Assembly (NCBI RefSeq): GCF_003334335.1
Contig: NZ_QOWQ01000003.1
Source of the DNA: Escherichia coli
GTDB taxonomy: Bacteria > Pseudomonadota > Gammaproteobacteria > Enterobacterales > Enterobacteriaceae
Reading direction: 5' to 3' (one strand)
DNA length: 64,000 nt
Part shown: piece by piece, positions 17,489-24,862 of the stretch
How the letters are laid out: every line of letters starts with the position of its first letter
Position numbering within the stretch: position 1 is the stretch's first letter
Translations under genes and position numbers: made by a program
Notes under the pieces: model-generated
What the model was told of the DNA's origin: nothing
The model's input: only the letters and a program-made list of their open reading frames with translations
The model's database searches: none

Positions 17489-18199
17489 ATGAACGCTGAG
17501 CGTAAATTTCTTTTTGCCTGTCTTATTTTTGCGCTGGTCATTTACGCTATCCACGCTTTCGGTTTATTCGATCTGCTCACCGATTTACCCCACTTACAGA
17601 CACTCATCCGCCAGAGCGGATTTTTCGGCTATAGCCTCTATATTCTGTTATTCATCATTGCCACCCTCTTGCTGTTACCAGGAAGCATACTGGTGATCGC
17701 GGGAGGAATAGTTTTTGGCCCGCTCTTAGGGACACTACTCTCATTAATTGCCGCCACGCTGGCCTCCTCGTGCTCATTCCTGCTGGCGCGCTGGCTGGGA
17801 CGTGATTTACTGCTGAAATACGTTGGCCATAGCAATACCTTCCAGGCCATTGAAAAAGGCATTGCGCGTAACGGTATTGATTTTCTTATTCTGACCCGCT
17901 TAATCCCGTTGTTTCCTTACAATATTCAAAATTACGCTTACGGATTAACCACAATCGCCTTCTGGCCTTATACCCTTATTTCGGCACTCACGACCCTACC
18001 CGGTATTGTTATTTATACCGTGATGGCAAGCGATCTCGCCAATGAAGGCATTACGCTGCGCTTTATTTTACAACTCTGTCTGGCGGGCCTGGCGCTGTTT
18101 ATTCTCGTCCAGCTCGCAAAACTCTACGCCCGACACAAACATGTGGATCTGTCTGCTTCGCGCCGCAGCCCACTTACTCACCCAAAAAATGAAGGATAG
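17489..18199 (+). CDS. ydjX: DedA / TVP38-TMEM64 (SNARE-associated) family inner-membrane protein
   Basis: ATG at 17489 (MNAERKFLF...). The ORF-track frame begins at a TTG 16 codons upstream. Multi-pass hydrophobic protein. Confidence 0.85.
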   Translation: MNAERKFLFACLIFALVIYAIHAFGLFDLLTDLPHLQTLIRQSGFFGYSLYILLFIIATLLLLPGSILVIAGGIVFGPLLGTLLSLIAATLASSCSFLLARWLGRDLLLKYVGHSNTFQAIEKGIARNGIDFLILTRLIPLFPYNIQNYAYGLTTIAFWPYTLISALTTLPGIVIYTVMASDLANEGITLRFILQLCLAGLALFILVQLAKLYARHKHVDLSASRRSPLTHPKNEG

Positions 18200-18203
18200 A
18201 ACG

Positions 18204-18881
18204 ATGTTGCAACATTATTCAGTGTCATGGAAAAAAGGACTGGCTGCACTCTGTTTACTGGCTGTTGCTGGGCTTAGCGGCTGCGATCAACAAGAGAATG
18301 CGGCGGCAAAAGTGGAATACGACGGACTTTCGAACAGCCAACCGCTGCGTGTCGATGCCAATAACCATACGGTAACCATGCTGGTGCAAATTAATGGTCG
18401 TTTCCTCACCGACGACACTCGTCACGGTATTGTGTTTAAAGATGGCTCCAACGGACATAAATCGCTGTTTATGGGTTATGCGACCCCGAAAGCATTTTAT
18501 GAAGCCCTGAAAGAGGCAGGTGGTACGCCGGGCGAAAACATGACGATGGATAATAAAGAAACGACTCATGTCACAGGCAGCAAACTGGATATTTCGGTCA
18601 ACTGGCAAGGGGCGGCAAAAGCGTATTCCTTCGATGAAGTGATTGTTGACAGTAATGGCAAGAAACTGGACATGCGCTTTGGCGGTAATTTAACGGCAGC
18701 AGAAGAGAAGAAAGCGGGTTGCCTGGTGTGTCTGGATAGCTGCCCGGTCGGCATCGTCAGCAATGCAACATACACTTATGGTGCGGTTGAAAAACGTGGT
18801 GAAGTTAAATTCAAAGGCAATGCCTCAGTTCTCCCGGCGGATAACACGCTGGCAACGGTTACCTTTAAAATCGCCGAATAA
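18204..18881 (+). CDS. ydjY: lipoprotein with a ferredoxin-like Cys cluster
   Basis: Start at MLQHYSVSW with gaagga 7 nt upstream. Lipobox LSGC and a CLVCLDSCP motif. The 54-codon upstream extension overlaps ydjX and is rejected. Confidence 0.85.
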   Translation: MLQHYSVSWKKGLAALCLLAVAGLSGCDQQENAAAKVEYDGLSNSQPLRVDANNHTVTMLVQINGRFLTDDTRHGIVFKDGSNGHKSLFMGYATPKAFYEALKEAGGTPGENMTMDNKETTHVTGSKLDISVNWQGAAKAYSFDEVIVDSNGKKLDMRFGGNLTAAEEKKAGCLVCLDSCPVGIVSNATYTYGAVEKRGEVKFKGNASVLPADNTLATVTFKIAE

Positions 18882-18895
18882 AGCCAGGATAAAGG

Positions 18896-22835: not shown

Positions 22836-23488
22836 TGCTCTGCGTGAAAAATGTTTCGCTACGTTTACCAGAAAGCCGCTTGCTGACAAACGTTAACTTT
22901 ACGGTGGATAAAGGTGACATTGTCACGTTAATGGGGCCGTCTGGCTGTGGAAAATCCACTCTGTTTTCATGGATGATTGGTGCACTGGCCGAACAGTTTT
23001 CTTGTACAGGTGAGCTATGGCTCAATGAGCAACGGATTGACATCCTACCCACCGCACAGCGTCAGATTGGCATTCTTTTTCAGGATGCACTGTTATTTGA
23101 CCAGTTCAGTGTCGGGCAAAATTTACTGCTGGCGCTACCGGCGACACTTAAAGGGAATGCCCGACGTAATGCCGTGAATGATGCACTTGAGCGTTCAGGC
23201 CTTGAGGGAGCTTTCCATCAGGATCCTGCCACTTTGTCTGGCGGTCAGCGAGCGCGCGTTGCTCTACTACGCGCCCTTCTCGCCCAACCAAAAGCGTTAC
23301 TCCTGGATGAGCCATTCAGCCGTCTTGATGTGGCTCTGCGCGATAATTTTCGCCAGTGGGTGTTCAGCGAAGTTCGCGCCCTGGCGATCCCCGTCGTTCA
23401 GGTAACGCACGATCTCCAGGATGTTCCTGCTGATAGTTCTGTTCTGGATATGGCGCAGTGGTCAGAAAATTACAACAAACTGCGATAA
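22835..23488 (+). CDS. ynjD: ABC transporter ATP-binding protein
   Basis: Start at MLCVKNVSL, with the ATG overlapping the ynjC TAA (TAATG). Walker A GPSGCGKST, signature LSGGQRARV and Walker B LLLDEPFS are present. Confidence 0.88.
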   Translation: MLCVKNVSLRLPESRLLTNVNFTVDKGDIVTLMGPSGCGKSTLFSWMIGALAEQFSCTGELWLNEQRIDILPTAQRQIGILFQDALLFDQFSVGQNLLLALPATLKGNARRNAVNDALERSGLEGAFHQDPATLSGGQRARVALLRALLAQPKALLLDEPFSRLDVALRDNFRQWVFSEVRALAIPVVQVTHDLQDVPADSSVLDMAQWSENYNKLR

Positions 23489-23554
23489 CGCAAAGTTTTT
23501 CTCAATGCGTCAGTTCAGAATGGCGCACTCAAAACTACAATGTCGGGATTTTCG

Positions 23555-24862
23555 ATGAAACGTGTTTCTCAAATGACCGCGCTGGCAATGGCTTTAGGGC
23601 TGGCTTGCGCTTCTTCGTGGGCCGCTGAACTGGCGAAGCCTCTTACACTTGACCAGCTTCAACAACAAAATGGCAAAGCGATAGATACTCGCCCCAGCGC
23701 GTTTTATAACGGCTGGCCACAAACCTTAAATGGCCCTTCTGGTCATGAACCTGCCGCCTTAAACCTCTCTGCCAGCTGGCTTGACAAAATGAGCACCGAA
23801 CAGCTCAACGCGTGGATCAAGCAACATAACCTGAAAACCGATGCTCCGGTGGCGCTGTACGGTAATGACAAAGATGTCGACGCCGTCAAAACGCGACTGC
23901 AAAAAGCAGGTTTAACGCATATCTCCATCCTGAGTGACGCGCTAAGCGAACCTTCCCGTCTGCAAAAACTGCCGCATTTTGAGCAGCTGGTTTATCCGCA
24001 ATGGCTGCACGACCTGCAACAAGGTAAAGAGGTTACGGCGAAACCTGCCGGTGACTGGAAAGTCATTGAAGCGGCCTGGGGCGCTCCTAAGCTTTACCTT
24101 ATCAGCCATATTCCCGGCGCTGACTACATCGATACCAACGAAGTGGAAAGTGAACCGCTGTGGAACAAAGTTTCTGATGAACAACTAAAAGCGATGCTGG
24201 CAAAACACGGCATTCGCCATGACACCACGGTCATTCTGTATGGGCGTGACGTATACGCTGCAGCGCGTGTGGCGCAGATTATGCTTTATGCTGGCGTGAA
24301 AGATGTGCGCCTGCTGGATGGCGGCTGGCAAACCTGGTCCGACGCGGGACTGCCTGTTGAGCGCGGAACGCCACCGAAAGTGAAAGCGGAACCGGATTTC
24401 GGCGTGAAGATCCCGGCACAACCGCAGTTGATGCTCGATATGGAACAGGCCCGTGGACTGCTGCATCGCCAGGATGCATCGCTGGTGAGCATTCGTTCGT
24501 GGCCAGAATTTATCGGTACGACCAGCGGTTACAGCTATATTAAACCAAAAGGTGAAATAGCCGGCGCACGTTGGGGACACGCTGGTAGCGACTCGACGCA
24601 TATGGAAGATTTTCATAACCCGGATGGCACCATGCGCAGCGCCGATGATATTACCGCTATGTGGAAAGCGTGGAATATCAAACCAGAGCAGCAAGTTTCA
24701 TTCTACTGCGGCACCGGCTGGCGCGCGTCCGAAACCTTTATGTACACACGCGCCATGGGTTGGAAGAATGTTTCCGTGTATGACGGCGGCTGGTACGAAT
24801 GGAGCAGCGATCCAAAAAATCCGGTAGCAACCGGTGAACGCGGCCCGGACAGTAGCAAATAA
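23555..24862 (+). CDS. ynjE: periplasmic multi-rhodanese-domain sulfurtransferase
   Basis: Start at MKRVSQMTALAM with a signal peptide ending SWA. Rhodanese active-site loop FYCGTGWRAS. Confidence 0.88.
   Translation: MKRVSQMTALAMALGLACASSWAAELAKPLTLDQLQQQNGKAIDTRPSAFYNGWPQTLNGPSGHEPAALNLSASWLDKMSTEQLNAWIKQHNLKTDAPVALYGNDKDVDAVKTRLQKAGLTHISILSDALSEPSRLQKLPHFEQLVYPQWLHDLQQGKEVTAKPAGDWKVIEAAWGAPKLYLISHIPGADYIDTNEVESEPLWNKVSDEQLKAMLAKHGIRHDTTVILYGRDVYAAARVAQIMLYAGVKDVRLLDGGWQTWSDAGLPVERGTPPKVKAEPDFGVKIPAQPQLMLDMEQARGLLHRQDASLVSIRSWPEFIGTTSGYSYIKPKGEIAGARWGHAGSDSTHMEDFHNPDGTMRSADDITAMWKAWNIKPEQQVSFYCGTGWRASETFMYTRAMGWKNVSVYDGGWYEWSSDPKNPVATGERGPDSSK

Follow-up and report, generated by a model that had tools for sequence, protein, structure and literature searches.

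The anaerobically induced ydjXYZ-ynjABCD and ynjE genes of Escherichia coli: a candidate envelope relay for selenium or sulfane sulfur

What process is served by the ydjXYZ-ynjABCD genes of Escherichia coli and the adjoining ynjE, which bring together two membrane proteins, a cysteine-cluster lipoprotein, an ABC importer and a periplasmic rhodanese? The window analysed here, a 64,000-nucleotide stretch (contig NZ_QOWQ01000003.1), comes from the E. coli chromosome and carries them in the order astC-xthA-ydjXYZ-ynjABCDE-ynjF-nudG-ynjH-gdhA. Over 9.5 kb the locus is 100% identical to several E. coli strains, and it finds a match in 5425 of 5426 complete E. coli genomes, with query coverage of at least 80% in 5393 of them. 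The operon is already catalogued and is not new as such. An earlier note had read eight tightly spaced genes with sulfur- or redox-type motifs as an envelope system for sulfur, thiosulfate or another chalcogen. All eight are present as described, and the recomputed junctions agree at 4, 14, −1, 6, −28, −1 and 66 nt; the fourth becomes 9 nt with the RefSeq ynjB start at 20161, the note having used an alternative in-frame ATG at 20158. Its motifs were likewise recovered in YdjY (LSGC and CLVCLDSCP), YnjA (CLCEFC), YnjD (ABC motifs) and YnjE (CGTGWR). Export signals are found on YdjY, YnjB and YnjE.

Co-transcription had been deduced from the spacing, and published ChIP and RNA-seq data bear it out: ydjXYZ-ynjABCD is one FNR-activated operon, with an FNR site at −60.5 of its promoter and FNR-dependent expression (PMC3688515). 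In the window, an FNR box (TTGAGaaaaATCAA, 17366..17379, + strand) with one mismatch to TTGAT-N4-ATCAA lies upstream of ydjX. The operon of O157 is induced on oxygen depletion. ynjE had been taken as the operon's end. It is co-expressed with the other genes but is listed as an FNR-activated unit of its own, whose site is at −41.5 (PMC3688515), and the 66-nt ynjD-ynjE gap holds a sigma70-like promoter, TTCAGA-16-TACAAT (23514..23541, +), so that ynjE cannot be treated just as the operon's end. Across 8.5 kb there are only two sigma70-like sites where 6.4 would be expected, and the one in the gap is the only one on the + strand; a scan of the gap for FNR boxes with three or fewer mismatches found none. 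An anaerobic iModulon consists of exactly ydjXYZ-ynjABCD, ynjE, yedEF and yjiLM, and its authors have already proposed, from transcriptomics, a role in molybdenum or selenium usage (PMC7888660). The statement that no substrate has been established is nevertheless correct. We have shown that the ydjXYZ-ynjABCD and ynjE genes form one conserved, co-regulated unit.

As the earlier note had it, the membrane part is a pair of DedA proteins. ydjX (17489..18199, +) encodes a TVP38/TMEM64-type protein of 236 aa and ydjZ (18896..19603, +) a second TVP38-type protein of 235 aa, with the VTT/DedA domain PF09335 at 92 and 87 bits, respectively. The domain is shared with the lipid transporters of the DedA superfamily (the undecaprenyl-phosphate flippase UptA and the TMEM41B/VMP1 scramblases), within which YdjX and YdjZ group with the eukaryotic TMEM41/Tvp38 branch. 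They differ from UptA, scoring 27–36 bits (27.5 for YdjX) against a model whose cut-off is 250. YdjX is 70–72% identical to the product of the first DedA gene in Citrobacter and Kluyvera loci. In Desulfobacterota, YdjX-type DedA proteins are fused to a CCG/4Fe-4S domain. A flippase-like TM domain is the other fusion partner of the CCG domain. Orthologues of YdjZ, at 50–60% identity, adjoin ydjY in Bacillota, Campylobacterota and Spirochaetota; those of Firmicutes have an N-terminal four-TM module that E. coli YdjZ lacks. We know of no other DedA system in which the partner is a Cys3 lipoprotein, a rhodanese or a CCG Fe-S domain.

The lipoprotein gene ydjY (18204..18881, +) lies between them. 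Its product has a lipobox, LSGC, at residue 24 with an Asp at +2, which we take to be an inner-membrane retention signal (Lol sorting), and a cluster, C173-x2-C176-x3-C180. It scores 145 bits against NF040466 (ydjY_domain) and has no match in Pfam-A, and its AF2 model (pLDDT 89.6) found no convincing fold match in the PDB. The label "ferredoxin-like" had to be abandoned, since the protein has only three cysteines and lacks both a Tat signal and a ferredoxin fold. R73 and H74 are among the invariant residues, as are the motifs RFGGN, GCxxCxDSC and YTxGAxExR. Of the 85 matches that tblastn gave to YdjY in the retrieved loci (Escherichia among them), 81 keep R73, H74 and the whole three-Cys cluster; in the remaining four, three alignments are truncated and one replaces R73 by Ala. 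YdjY defines a family of extracytoplasmic Cys3 proteins that is small, numbering 389 clusters at 50% identity. Among the 71 non-Escherichia loci, 47 carry a DedA gene within 1 kb of ydjY and 60 carry one within 4 kb, and a DedA-YdjY fusion occurs (P0312). Rhodanese-domain ORFs are found within 8 kb in 12 of the 71, and three architectures fuse a rhodanese to YdjY (P0271, P0345, P0270), two with a recognisable N-terminal signal or lipobox. Citrobacter and Kluyvera loci lack ydjY and keep the rest of the set, so YdjY is not essential to the enteric system.

YnjE (23555..24862, +) is an exported protein with three rhodanese stretches, in line with the original description, and its active loop CGTGWR lies at 385. 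Orthologues carrying a signal peptide or lipobox together with a CG(T/S)GWR loop adjoin ydjY in Sedimentibacter, Peptostreptococcaceae, Catonella and Campylobacter, the loop thus being conserved in orthologues from other phyla. Published work places YnjE in the periplasm and reports poor activity with thiosulfate or 3-mercaptopyruvate; the purified protein had no apparent thiosulfate:GSH activity, ynjE complementation barely raised sulfane sulfur, a job done by PspE, and the physiological substrate was called unclear (PMC10215317). Thiosulfate as a theme is not supported by these data. YnjE resembles E. coli PspE and ExtH, from a Geobacter selenite/tellurite reduction operon, in being an exported rhodanese with a catalytic Cys, although its similarity to ExtH is weak (E 3e-10; 39.6 bits against a cut-off of 200). 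It differs from both in having three domains and no useful thiosulfate activity, and in its genetic tie to YdjY and DedA proteins rather than to stress or cytochrome conduits.

The CMD domain PF02627 (36.5 bits) and PDB relatives among CMD/AhpD proteins (E ~1e-9) uphold the AhpD-like assignment of YnjA (19603..20151, +), whose CLCEFC at residue 74 forms the site C74-x-C76-x2-C79. It scores 101 bits against a 'YciW-related (seleno)protein' model, below the cut-off of 310, and no TM helix is predicted (top Kyte-Doolittle mean over 19 residues, 1.28). Co-occurrence with ydjY had been suggested as a check, and beyond Escherichia YnjA and ydjY are not conserved together. In Sedimentibacter (L028), which has nearly the full gene set, a CCG protein takes the gene position held by YnjA in E. 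coli. Citrobacter and Kluyvera encode a YnjA orthologue (54–57% identity; CHCAFC or CDCAFC) on the other strand, where it overlaps ynjF by 8 nt and is translationally coupled to it. In E. coli, ynjF (24871..25491, − strand) converges on ynjE with 8 nt between the stop codons and encodes a CDP-alcohol phosphatidyltransferase (PF01066, 43.9 bits) whose nearest models, archaetidylinositol-phosphate and PIP synthases, match below cut-off. YnjF is 82–88% identical in Citrobacter and Kluyvera, where the overlapping pair occupies the same site, and YnjF-like genes lie inside the ydjY/ynjBCD clusters of four Firmicutes loci (L028, L046, L062, L067). Given this conserved set and the ynjA-ynjF overlap, we propose that ynjF, overlooked by the earlier note, belongs to the system.

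The importer comprises a periplasmic binding protein, YnjB (20161..21327 by the RefSeq start, +), a fused double permease of 511 aa, YnjC (21300..22835, +; 28-nt overlap with ynjB), and an ATPase, YnjD (22835..23488, +). Domain matches agree with its description as an ABC system: SBP_bac_8 in YnjB, which also scores 560 bits against NF008633, BPD_transp_1 in YnjC, and ABC_tran (103 bits) in YnjD, with Walker A GPSGCGKS, signature LSGGQ and Walker B LLLDEP. A binding protein, fused 12-TM permease and single ATPase are the layout of the type I importers PotABCD, ThiBPQ, FbpABC and PhnSTUV, and it is among these that the best, weak matches fall. No close solved relative of YnjB was found in the PDB, its profile reaching only PotD, ThiB and the binding proteins for agropine, Fe3+ and AEP, with E values no better than 1e-5; YnjC is weakly similar to the PhnU2, ModB and CysT permeases; and the best equivalog models for YnjD (PhnT2, CysA-type, ThiQ, PotA) all score far below their cut-offs. 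The 'putative thiamine transport' names that some sources give are unsupported. Unlike PotD, which stacks spermidine on Trp229, YnjB has an invariant Asn at that position. Aromatic and acidic residues make up its invariant positions and Arg is not among them, so a cationic or neutral ligand fits better than an oxyanion such as selenite. YnjB orthologues (29–37% identity) occur in Firmicutes ydjY clusters, in which the ynjC counterpart is split into two genes.

Genes for SelD (367 bits), YedF (181 bits), DUF3343 and a TIGR01977 desulfurase/Sec-lyase-like protein accompany ydjY in loci L022, L023, L033, L045, L056, L058 and L072, a neighbourhood seen in Desulfobacterota loci only, which do not count as independent cases. 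L058 has a single-strand array of CCG-DedA, YdjY, CsdL, YedF, DUF3343, a predicted rhodanese-domain protein preceded by a hydrophobic stretch, ArsS and SelD; in L033, SelD directly follows ydjY. selD lies within 10 kb of ydjY in six of 71 loci against ~0.4 by chance, a rough estimate that assumes one selD per genome of ~3.5 Mb and ignores shared ancestry. The E. coli selD is 6.2 kb away with five unrelated genes between, a linkage that is weak at best. The data show ydjY linked to DedA genes and rhodaneses and, within Desulfobacterota, also to the SelD/YedF/DUF3343/desulfurase set. The SelD/YedF adjacency may instead reflect the habit of selenoprotein genes of clustering with Sec machinery, since known selenoprotein families include ArsS, GlpC-like Fe-S proteins and AhpD-like proteins. 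Firmicutes and Campylobacter loci have ArsS, glycosyltransferases, a kinase and YnjF in place of SelD, which points to a lipid or sugar product. In anaerobes, ydjY and its DedA gene are at home in the ArsS 'arsenosugar biosynthesis'/radical SAM-selenodomain neighbourhood (TIGR04167, TIGR04282, TIGR04283), accompanied by C-GCAxxG-C-C and CCG Fe-S proteins; the E. coli window differs in having none of the genes of that neighbourhood, the enteric version consisting of transport and relay components only.

Within the envelope sulfur/redox theme, a ferredoxin-like YdjY has to be set aside and thiosulfate lacks support; the theme itself is supported by the YnjE orthologues beside ydjY in four distant lineages, the rhodanese-YdjY fusions, the Desulfobacterota neighbours and yedEF co-expression. 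The reading that we prefer, at a probability of roughly 0.4, is an FNR-induced, envelope-spanning relay for a reactive chalcogen atom as candidate substrate, serving anaerobic metabolism; selenium is the likeliest chalcogen, with sulfane sulfur as the alternative. YnjE would take up sulfur or selenium in the periplasm as a persulfide or perselenide on Cys385 and hand it to the three-Cys site of inner-membrane-anchored YdjY. YdjX and YdjZ would then take the chalcogen species through the inner membrane, either as such or on a carrier, and a cytoplasmic thiol/disulfide protein would receive or reduce it: YnjA (CxCxxC) in enterics and, in strict anaerobes, an HdrD-like CCG/4Fe-4S domain that in many cases forms a fusion with the DedA protein. 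The product may then pass to SelD or to sulfur acceptors. YnjBCD would import a small molecule for the same pathway, and YnjF may make a phospholipid that it needs, which is the least understood step and leaves YnjF without a clear role.

A doubtful but serious competitor is a phospholipid or head-group pathway, in which YnjBCD imports a polar alcohol, YnjF joins it to CDP-diacylglycerol and the DedA pair flips the lipid, with YdjY, YnjE and YnjA merely modifying or protecting it and chalcogen chemistry secondary. The place of ynjF in the conserved set of enterics and Firmicutes argues for it, as do the TIGR04282/TIGR04283 transferases, APH-type kinase and flippase-like (TIGR00374) protein of anaerobe ydjY clusters and a fatty-acid-hydroxylase-YdjY fusion (P0363). 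The DedA family is increasingly seen as lipid transporters, and its association here with a lipid enzyme fits a lipid substrate; the conserved residues of YnjB may also resemble those of proteins that bind cationic head-group alcohols. Such a pathway nevertheless leaves the rhodanese fusions, invariant Cys triad, SelD/YedF neighbourhoods and yedEF co-expression unexplained, and we know of no unusual E. coli phospholipid. According to the text of a published B. subtilis undecaprenyl-phosphate assay, moreover, high-level resistance came only from the paralogue DedA, YqjA and YabI giving ~4-fold at high induction. We consider it improbable that the genes encode a plain importer for thiosulfate- or sulfate-type assimilation with a periplasmic thiosulfate sulfurtransferase, the simplest reading of the earlier note. 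RefSeq does name the product 'thiosulfate sulfurtransferase YnjE', and YnjD and YnjC are weakly similar to CysA/CysT-type components, but the CysA, CysT and ThiQ equivalog scores are all far below cut-off, the YnjB profile retrieves no sulfate or thiosulfate binding protein from the PDB, and the YnjE biochemistry speaks against it. Control is by FNR and anaerobiosis, and we found no report of control by CysB or sulfur limitation.

Little more can be said for molybdenum cofactor sulfuration, with YnjE as a molybdopterin-synthase sulfurtransferase and the operon supplying sulfur for anaerobic molybdoenzymes. YnjE is so annotated in FNR and LysR-family studies, which cite Dahl 2011, molybdenum is mentioned by the iModulon authors, and FdhD-like and MoeB/ThiF-like genes, judged by eye, lie near ydjY in a Spirochaetota locus (L047); however, YnjE is periplasmic whereas Moco synthesis is cytoplasmic, and an ynjE deletion strain is normal both in its Moco-dependent HAP resistance and in its chlorate phenotype (PMC3831636). 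Handling of organo-arsenicals or metalloids, in which YdjY and YnjA would bind As(III)-type species through their three-Cys sites and the system would be the transport arm of an ArsS-type pathway, appears very unlikely. ArsS (TIGR04167, 450 bits) and the TIGR04282/TIGR04283 transferases do occur in ydjY loci of 8–9 taxon groups, and the CxCxxC spacing of YnjA is presumably that of the ArsR As(III) site, which is a lead only. Against this, ArsS and these transferases are absent from the window of E. coli and from other enteric loci, the L058 ArsS shares its array with SelD and YedF, an arrangement no less in keeping with selenium, and the YnjE loop, as read from the sequence, is of the 6-residue sulfurtransferase type and not the CX5R arsenate-reductase type. 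The 'arsenosugar' family names stem from cyanobacterial work. Chance co-transcription of neighbours with no common pathway is disfavoured to a similar degree: content does vary by lineage (Citrobacter lacks ydjY, ynjA lies on either strand, and ynjBCD, ynjE or ynjF is present in only some ydjY loci), yet the same families recur in Proteobacteria and Firmicutes, nearly completely in L028, members are fused to one another, and ynjE, which has a promoter of its own, is co-expressed with the operon.

The chalcogen relay that we favour has precedents in YedE/YedF, a putative selenium transporter with a TusA/DsrE-like protein, and in TsuA/TsuB (YeeE/YeeD), the thiosulfate uptake pair, each of which couples a transporter to a Cys-based S/Se carrier. 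YedF genes also adjoin the Desulfobacterota ydjY clusters. The present system bears no sequence relationship to either: its membrane part is a pair of TVP38-type DedA proteins, its carrier-like proteins are both extracytoplasmic (YdjY, YnjE) and cytoplasmic (YnjA), and an ABC importer and a phospholipid synthase are attached. According to a review, a high-affinity system for selenium transport has yet to be identified (PMC9312934). Comparison with other bacteria places the operon, together with ynjF, in a membrane module found across anaerobes and located beside selenium-activation genes. It is thus a candidate for the missing bacterial delivery route for selenium, or for sulfane sulfur, and if the relay operates as proposed it would fill this open niche of bacterial selenium delivery.

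The ydjXYZ-ynjABCD genes and ynjE (17489-24862, plus strand), together with the convergent ynjF (24871-25491, minus strand), form a conserved, FNR-controlled unit of nine genes. In RefSeq the order is astC, xthA, ydjX, ydjY, ydjZ, ynjA, ynjB, ynjC, ynjD, ynjE, ynjF (minus strand), nudG, ynjH, gdhA. Several complete E. coli genomes matched a 9.5-kb query around the locus with 100% identity; in all, 5425 of the 5426 complete genomes of the species gave a match, 5393 of them with at least 80% query coverage. The GC content of the operon is unremarkable and thus gives no sign of recent transfer. 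Recomputation from the sequence returned the junctions on which the earlier note had based tight coupling (4, 14, -1, 6, -28, -1 and 66 nt); the sole difference is the start of ynjB, which RefSeq places at the second ATG of an ATGATG (20161), making that junction 9 nt. The motifs listed in the same note are all present, namely LSGC and CLVCLDSCP in YdjY, CLCEFC in YnjA, CGTGWR in YnjE, and Walker A, signature and Walker B in YnjD, and its protein families are backed by Pfam and NCBIfam, with the exception of the ferredoxin likeness of YdjY. A mechanical ORF list lengthens ydjX to a TTG at 17441 (17441-17488) and ynjD to an ATG at 22748 (22748-22834); the RefSeq starts at 17489 and 22835 carry Shine-Dalgarno-like sequences. 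The operon appears decayed in a Shigella flexneri record (CP182557.1, 9500-17300), where ydjX, ynjA, ynjB and ynjD are truncated matches, ynjC lies in several shifted pieces and ynjE was undetected. Two E. coli records (L002 and L003) also gave fragmentary matches and contain no runs of N.

An FNR box, TTGAGaaaaATCAA, with one mismatch to the consensus lies upstream of ydjX at 17366-17379. A genome-scale study of FNR, backed by ChIP-seq and RNA-seq, described ydjXYZ-ynjABCD as one directly activated operon with a site at -60.5 and ynjE as an FNR-activated unit of its own with a site at -41.5 (PMC3688515). A box near the promoter and published FNR-dependent expression identify the locus as FNR-activated. 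Of the co-transcription proposed earlier, the part concerning ydjXYZ-ynjABCD therefore stands, but ynjE is a separate unit (PMC3688515). The 66-nt gap between ynjD and ynjE holds the sole plus-strand sigma70-like site of the 8.5 kb scanned, in which 2 such consensus sites were observed against 6.4 expected; no FNR box with three or fewer mismatches was found in the gap, although the literature reports one. A second FNR-like box with one mismatch, TTGATCCTGATAAA, occurs on the plus strand at 26062-26075, inside ynjH and upstream of gdhA. Boxes with up to two mismatches number 51 in the whole window against 38 expected, slightly above chance. When O157:H7 runs out of oxygen, ydjY and ynjE go up with the FNR regulon, and ynjABCD is mildly induced by overexpression of BaeR. 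Independent component analysis of about 3000 expression profiles placed ydjXYZ-ynjABCD, ynjE, yedEF and yjiLM in an uncharacterised anaerobic iModulon, for which its authors proposed a link to molybdenum and selenium usage (PMC7888660). The stop codons of ynjE and ynjF are separated by 8 nt (24862-24871) with no terminator-like structure between them, and the pair is among RNA-seq candidates for an "excludon" (PMC12288877).

YdjY is not a ferredoxin. Its CLVCLDSCP motif had been read as ferredoxin-like, a reading that is not borne out, since the protein lacks the four-Cys CxxCxxCxxxCP motif, the fold and the Tat signal of 4Fe-4S ferredoxins. Beyond the lipid-modified Cys it has three cysteines (C-x2-C-x3-CP), which resemble cysteines 2-4 of the ferredoxin motif without the first, and its signal is a Sec-type lipoprotein signal without a twin arginine. 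Directly after the lipidated Cys comes Asp; under the rules of Lol sorting, this predicts that the protein stays at the inner membrane, on its periplasmic side. YdjY had no match in Pfam-A and nothing useful in sequence comparison with the PDB (E of 0.3 or above), and it is a member of the YdjY domain family (NF040466/PF27149; 145 bits, cut-off 50). The family is rare, with 389 clusters (50% identity) in an exhaustive HMM search of 1.84 billion proteins. Its members are highly conserved: E. coli YdjY is 47-60% identical to homologues from Bacillota, Desulfobacterota, Campylobacterota and Spirochaetota, and R73, H74, RFGGN, GCxxCxDSC and YTxGAxExR are invariant in our alignment. No in-frame TGA, which could encode selenocysteine, was found in place of the conserved cysteines in homologues of YdjY. 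A deltaproteobacterial MAG (L056) has two ydjY paralogues in tandem (9281-9844 and 10001-10543), whose products share 33% and 56% identity with the E. coli protein, and one fusion protein (P0345) carries two YdjY domains on either side of a rhodanese domain.

The membrane proteins YdjX and YdjZ belong, as the earlier note had it, to the DedA/VTT superfamily (PF09335; 91.6 and 87.1 bits, cut-off 33.9), and both have been placed in its TMEM41/Tvp38 branch. Neither matches the model for the undecaprenyl-phosphate transporter UptA (NF052604; 27.5 and 36.4 bits, cut-off 250). In a published undecaprenyl-phosphate assay in B. subtilis, high-level resistance is reported from the paralogue DedA only, with about 4-fold from YqjA and YabI at high induction. 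Among the 71 non-Escherichia ydjY loci whose neighbourhoods were compared, a DedA gene lies within 1 kb of ydjY in 47 and within 4 kb in 60; the YdjZ-type DedA proteins of these loci are 50-60% identical to E. coli YdjZ. YdjY and a TVP38-type DedA constitute a core module that is widespread in anaerobes, and a natural fusion of DedA with YdjY exists (P0312). A small four-TM protein follows ydjY as a separate gene in Desulfobacterota and Campylobacterota and is fused to the N-terminus of the YdjZ-type DedA in 29 Firmicutes ORFs; E. coli is without it. An HdrD-like CCG/4Fe-4S protein occurs in 22 of 44 taxon groups, often fused to the YdjX-type DedA. Such CCG-DedA fusions are seen in the Desulfobacterota loci L022 (8002-9861), L053 (11046-12896) and L058 (7956-9842), and in a Spirochaetota MAG (L047, 11068-13176) the CCG domain is joined to a flippase-like domain of the LPG-synthase TM type; we have seen no description of either architecture.

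Through gene proximity and through fusions, the core module is repeatedly connected with exported rhodaneses, with a cytoplasmic disulfide-reductase-like domain, and with lipid and sugar enzymes, YnjF among them. Recurrent partners identified with NCBIfam models include TIGR04282 and TIGR04283 transferases, an APH-type kinase, a flippase-like protein, a C-GCAxxG-C-C protein, YnjF-like CDP-alcohol phosphatidyltransferases, and orthologues of YnjB/C/D and YnjE. Nearly the entire E. coli set, ynjF included, is found in one Sedimentibacter locus (L028) in the order ynjE, x, ydjY, four-TM gene, ydjX, ydjZ, CCG gene, ynjF, ynjB, ynjC, ynjC', ynjD. YnjE is a rhodanese sulfurtransferase, as had been proposed, with three PF00581 stretches (113 bits) and a catalytic Cys at residue 385 in the six-residue loop CGTGWR that is kept in orthologues. 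Orthologues adjoin ydjY in Sedimentibacter, Peptostreptococcaceae, Catonella and Campylobacter concisus, all with an export signal and a CG(T/S)GWR loop, and natural rhodanese-YdjY fusions exist in both domain orders (P0271, P0345, P0270). Co-occurrence of ydjY, ynjA and ynjE across genomes, which had been put forward as a check on the operon, is seen in part: ynjE adjoins ydjY in distant lineages, but YnjA was not found beside ydjY in any of the 71 non-Escherichia loci.

A variant in other enterics accounts for the inclusion of ynjF. YnjB orthologues about 80% identical to that of E. coli are common in Citrobacter and Kluyvera and occur in one record labelled Salmonella. At the same chromosomal site, these genomes have xthA followed by ydjX-ydjZ-ynjB-ynjC-ynjD-ynjE on the plus strand, with ynjA-ynjF on the minus strand converging from the nudG side and overlapping by 8 nt; ydjY is absent. 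Identity to the E. coli proteins is 70% for YdjX, 75% for YdjZ, 57% for YnjA, 80% for YnjB, 71% for YnjC, 72% for YnjD, 89% for YnjE and 88% for YnjF, values that make the orthology clear. That the same set occupies the same site, with overlapping ynjA and ynjF, argues that ynjF belongs to the system, and the overlap argues that YnjA is functionally tied to YnjF. By this comparison, two things set E. coli apart: ydjY lies between its DedA genes, and its ynjA has moved to the main operon. YnjF is a CDP-alcohol phosphatidyltransferase (PF01066; 43.9 bits, cut-off 22) that reached the cut-off of none of the equivalog models for PIP synthase, PgsA and Pcs. The gene nudG, annotated as a CTP pyrophosphohydrolase, diverges from ynjF across an 86-nt gap (25491-25578) and likewise from ynjA-ynjF in Citrobacter and Kluyvera (L082, 14937-15017); this places a CTP-hydrolysing enzyme next to a CDP-alcohol/CDP-diacylglycerol enzyme, which may or may not be coincidence.

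YnjA is a carboxymuconolactone decarboxylase/AhpD-like protein, in agreement with its initial reading (PF02627; 36.5 bits, cut-off 23), with relatives in the PDB at E of about 1e-9. Its CxxC is C76-E-F-C79 with an extra C74, and the resulting CxCxxC is kept in E. coli, Citrobacter and Kluyvera. It is a relative but not a member of the YciW-related (seleno)protein family (NF053654; 101 bits, cut-off 310). Its N-terminal hydrophobic stretch was considered as a membrane anchor and rejected, with a hydropathy maximum of 1.28 and no predicted TM helix. YnjA is encoded where the Sedimentibacter locus (L028) has its CCG gene, from which we infer a replacement: YnjA would be an oxygen-tolerant substitute for the CCG protein as cytoplasmic thiol/disulfide partner.

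YnjBCD has the parts of a type I binding-protein-dependent ABC importer, as the earlier note proposed: an exported binding protein, a permease of the BPD_transp_1 type, and an ATPase that carries the Walker A, signature and Walker B motifs. YnjB matches NF008633 with 560 bits. Identity with the thiamine (ThiBPQ), polyamine (PotABCD) or sulfate-thiosulfate (CysPUWA) transporters was rejected. None of the equivalog models ThiQ, PotA, CysA, CysT, ModB and PhnT2 came near its cut-off for YnjBCD (ThiQ 130 bits against 245-298, PotA 130 against 482, CysA 110 against 502, CysT 22 against 246-415), and the spermidine-stacking Trp229 of PotD is an invariant Asn in YnjB. Sequence comparison of YnjB with the PDB gave no solved relative, and a cross-phylum profile found PotD-type, agropine, Fe3+, AEP and ThiB binding proteins at E of 1e-5 or weaker, through generic motifs. 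Most of the invariant residues of YnjB are aromatic or acidic and none is Arg, a composition that would make the site unlike one for an oxyanion. An AlphaFold model from an enteric-only alignment was unusable (pLDDT 41.7). The best, weak, solved match of the profile is PDB 4edp, an uncharacterised binding protein of Clostridium perfringens; a 2026 vaccine paper lists an extracellular solute-binding protein and a "YnjE" rhodanese of that species as conserved surface antigens (PMC12989499).

In one phylum the core module is linked to genes of selenium activation. Clustering with SelD, YedF, DUF3343 and an EF2568-type desulfurase was found at 7-8 Desulfobacterota ydjY loci. In seven (L022, L023, L033, L045, L056, L058, L072), about 6 kb or less separates the ydjY/DedA-CCG cluster from these four markers: SelD (TIGR00476, 367 bits), YedF (TIGR03527, 181 bits), a DUF3343 protein and a TIGR01977 cysteine desulfurase/selenocysteine-lyase-like protein. 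In L033 ydjY is followed directly by SelD. L058, from a Syntrophales MAG, has a single-strand array of CCG-DedA, YdjY, desulfurase, YedF, DUF3343, a predicted rhodanese-domain protein with a hydrophobic stretch in front, ArsS and SelD. That the arrangement varies from locus to locus speaks for selection on proximity, yet the loci are phylogenetically related and several of the clustered proteins come from families that often are selenoproteins, so that the association is suggestive and not conclusive. In E. coli, selD (31052-32095, minus strand) lies 6.2 kb beyond ynjE, behind nudG, ynjH, gdhA, ynjI and topB, and is the sole gene in the 64-kb window that matches the selenium/ArsS-type ydjY partners of other phyla; the linkage is weak. 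E. coli yedEF is tied to the locus by co-expression only (PMC7888660). This published co-expression and the neighbourhoods and fusions of anaerobes described here are two independent lines that converge on the same genes.

Our preferred reading, to which we assign a probability of about 0.4, is an envelope chalcogen relay that would run from YnjE to YdjY, through the membrane by way of YdjX/YdjZ, and on to YnjA, with YnjBCD bringing an imported compound and YnjF a lipid. The composition of the locus has no match in any characterised system; in kind, it is a transporter with a Cys-based sulfur/selenium relay. The main rival, a specialised phospholipid pathway with the thiol proteins as accessories, could draw on YnjF and on a natural fusion of a fatty-acid hydroxylase with YdjY (P0363); set against the rhodanese fusions of YdjY and its selenium-gene neighbours, we think it unlikely. 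Plain thiosulfate assimilation is improbable: the RefSeq name of YnjE and, as one of its options, the earlier note point to thiosulfate, but this periplasmic protein shows no apparent thiosulfate:GSH activity, and what it acts on physiologically has been called unclear (PMC10215317). Sulfuration of Moco, to which the molybdenum proposed for the iModulon might be related, is just as hard to credit, Moco-dependent phenotypes being normal in a ynjE deletion strain (PMC3831636). Little speaks for arsenic handling either. An ArsS radical SAM protein (450 bits) is a recurrent partner of ydjY, but ArsS-type cluster genes are confined to the loci of anaerobes, and tblastn of ArsS, TIGR04282 and TIGR04283 representatives against the 64-kb window gave no matches, so the E. 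coli locus is not an arsenosugar-type cluster. ArsS-family radical SAM genes, named after arsenosugar synthesis, are present at L058 (14380-15390, with 15640-16626) and L063 (16165-17100); that in L058 shares its array with SelD, YedF and DUF3343, a hint that selenium instead of arsenic might be what this branch acts on.

A further reading is a lipid-linked chalcogen shuttle, a long shot in which every chemical step is conjectural. YnjBCD would deliver a thiol-bearing or chalcogen-reactive alcohol that YnjF would join to CDP-diacylglycerol, and the TVP38-type DedA pair YdjX/YdjZ would flip the resulting carrier lipid. Loading of the carrier with selenium or sulfur would fall to YnjE and to YdjY, the Cys3 lipoprotein, on the periplasmic side. 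After flip-back, a cytoplasmic disulfide-reducing partner, YnjA in enterics and the HdrD-like CCG domain fused to DedA or to a flippase-like protein in strict anaerobes, would free selenide or sulfide for SelD and other acceptors. This is the sole reading that gives every conserved component a job. If true, the shuttle would be the missing high-affinity entry route for selenium and also the first case of an inorganic nutrient handled by a lipid carrier.

The operon, its regulation and a role in molybdenum or selenium usage suggested from transcriptomics are already known. As far as the searched literature shows, the YdjY-DedA-rhodanese module with its fusions, the SelD/YedF neighbourhoods, the inclusion of ynjF, the coupling of ynjA to ynjF and the rejection of the ferredoxin annotation of YdjY are new. 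We found no functional literature on YdjY, YnjA, YnjB or YnjF, with nothing specific from searches on ynjF, and nothing specific that connects DedA, TVP38 or ArsS with selenium. Even if the locus serves ordinary sulfur handling or a minor lipid pathway, there is more reason to doubt the name "thiosulfate sulfurtransferase" for YnjE, and the "ferredoxin-type" annotation of YdjY is corrected.

The main use of selenium in E. coli is in the anaerobic formate dehydrogenases, and FNR turns the operon on under just these conditions. The locus may bear on how bacteria specifically acquire trace selenium, for which a 2022 review noted that a high-affinity transport system had not been identified (PMC9312934). 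Our analysis places the uncharacterised YdjY family in a functional context for the first time, brings in an unstudied phospholipid-synthase homologue, YnjF, and lends context to the bacterial TVP38/TMEM64-type DedA proteins, the nearest bacterial relatives of the eukaryotic TMEM41B-type scramblases. It also makes the question of selenium acquisition testable by simple experiments in E. coli, the best genetic model available.
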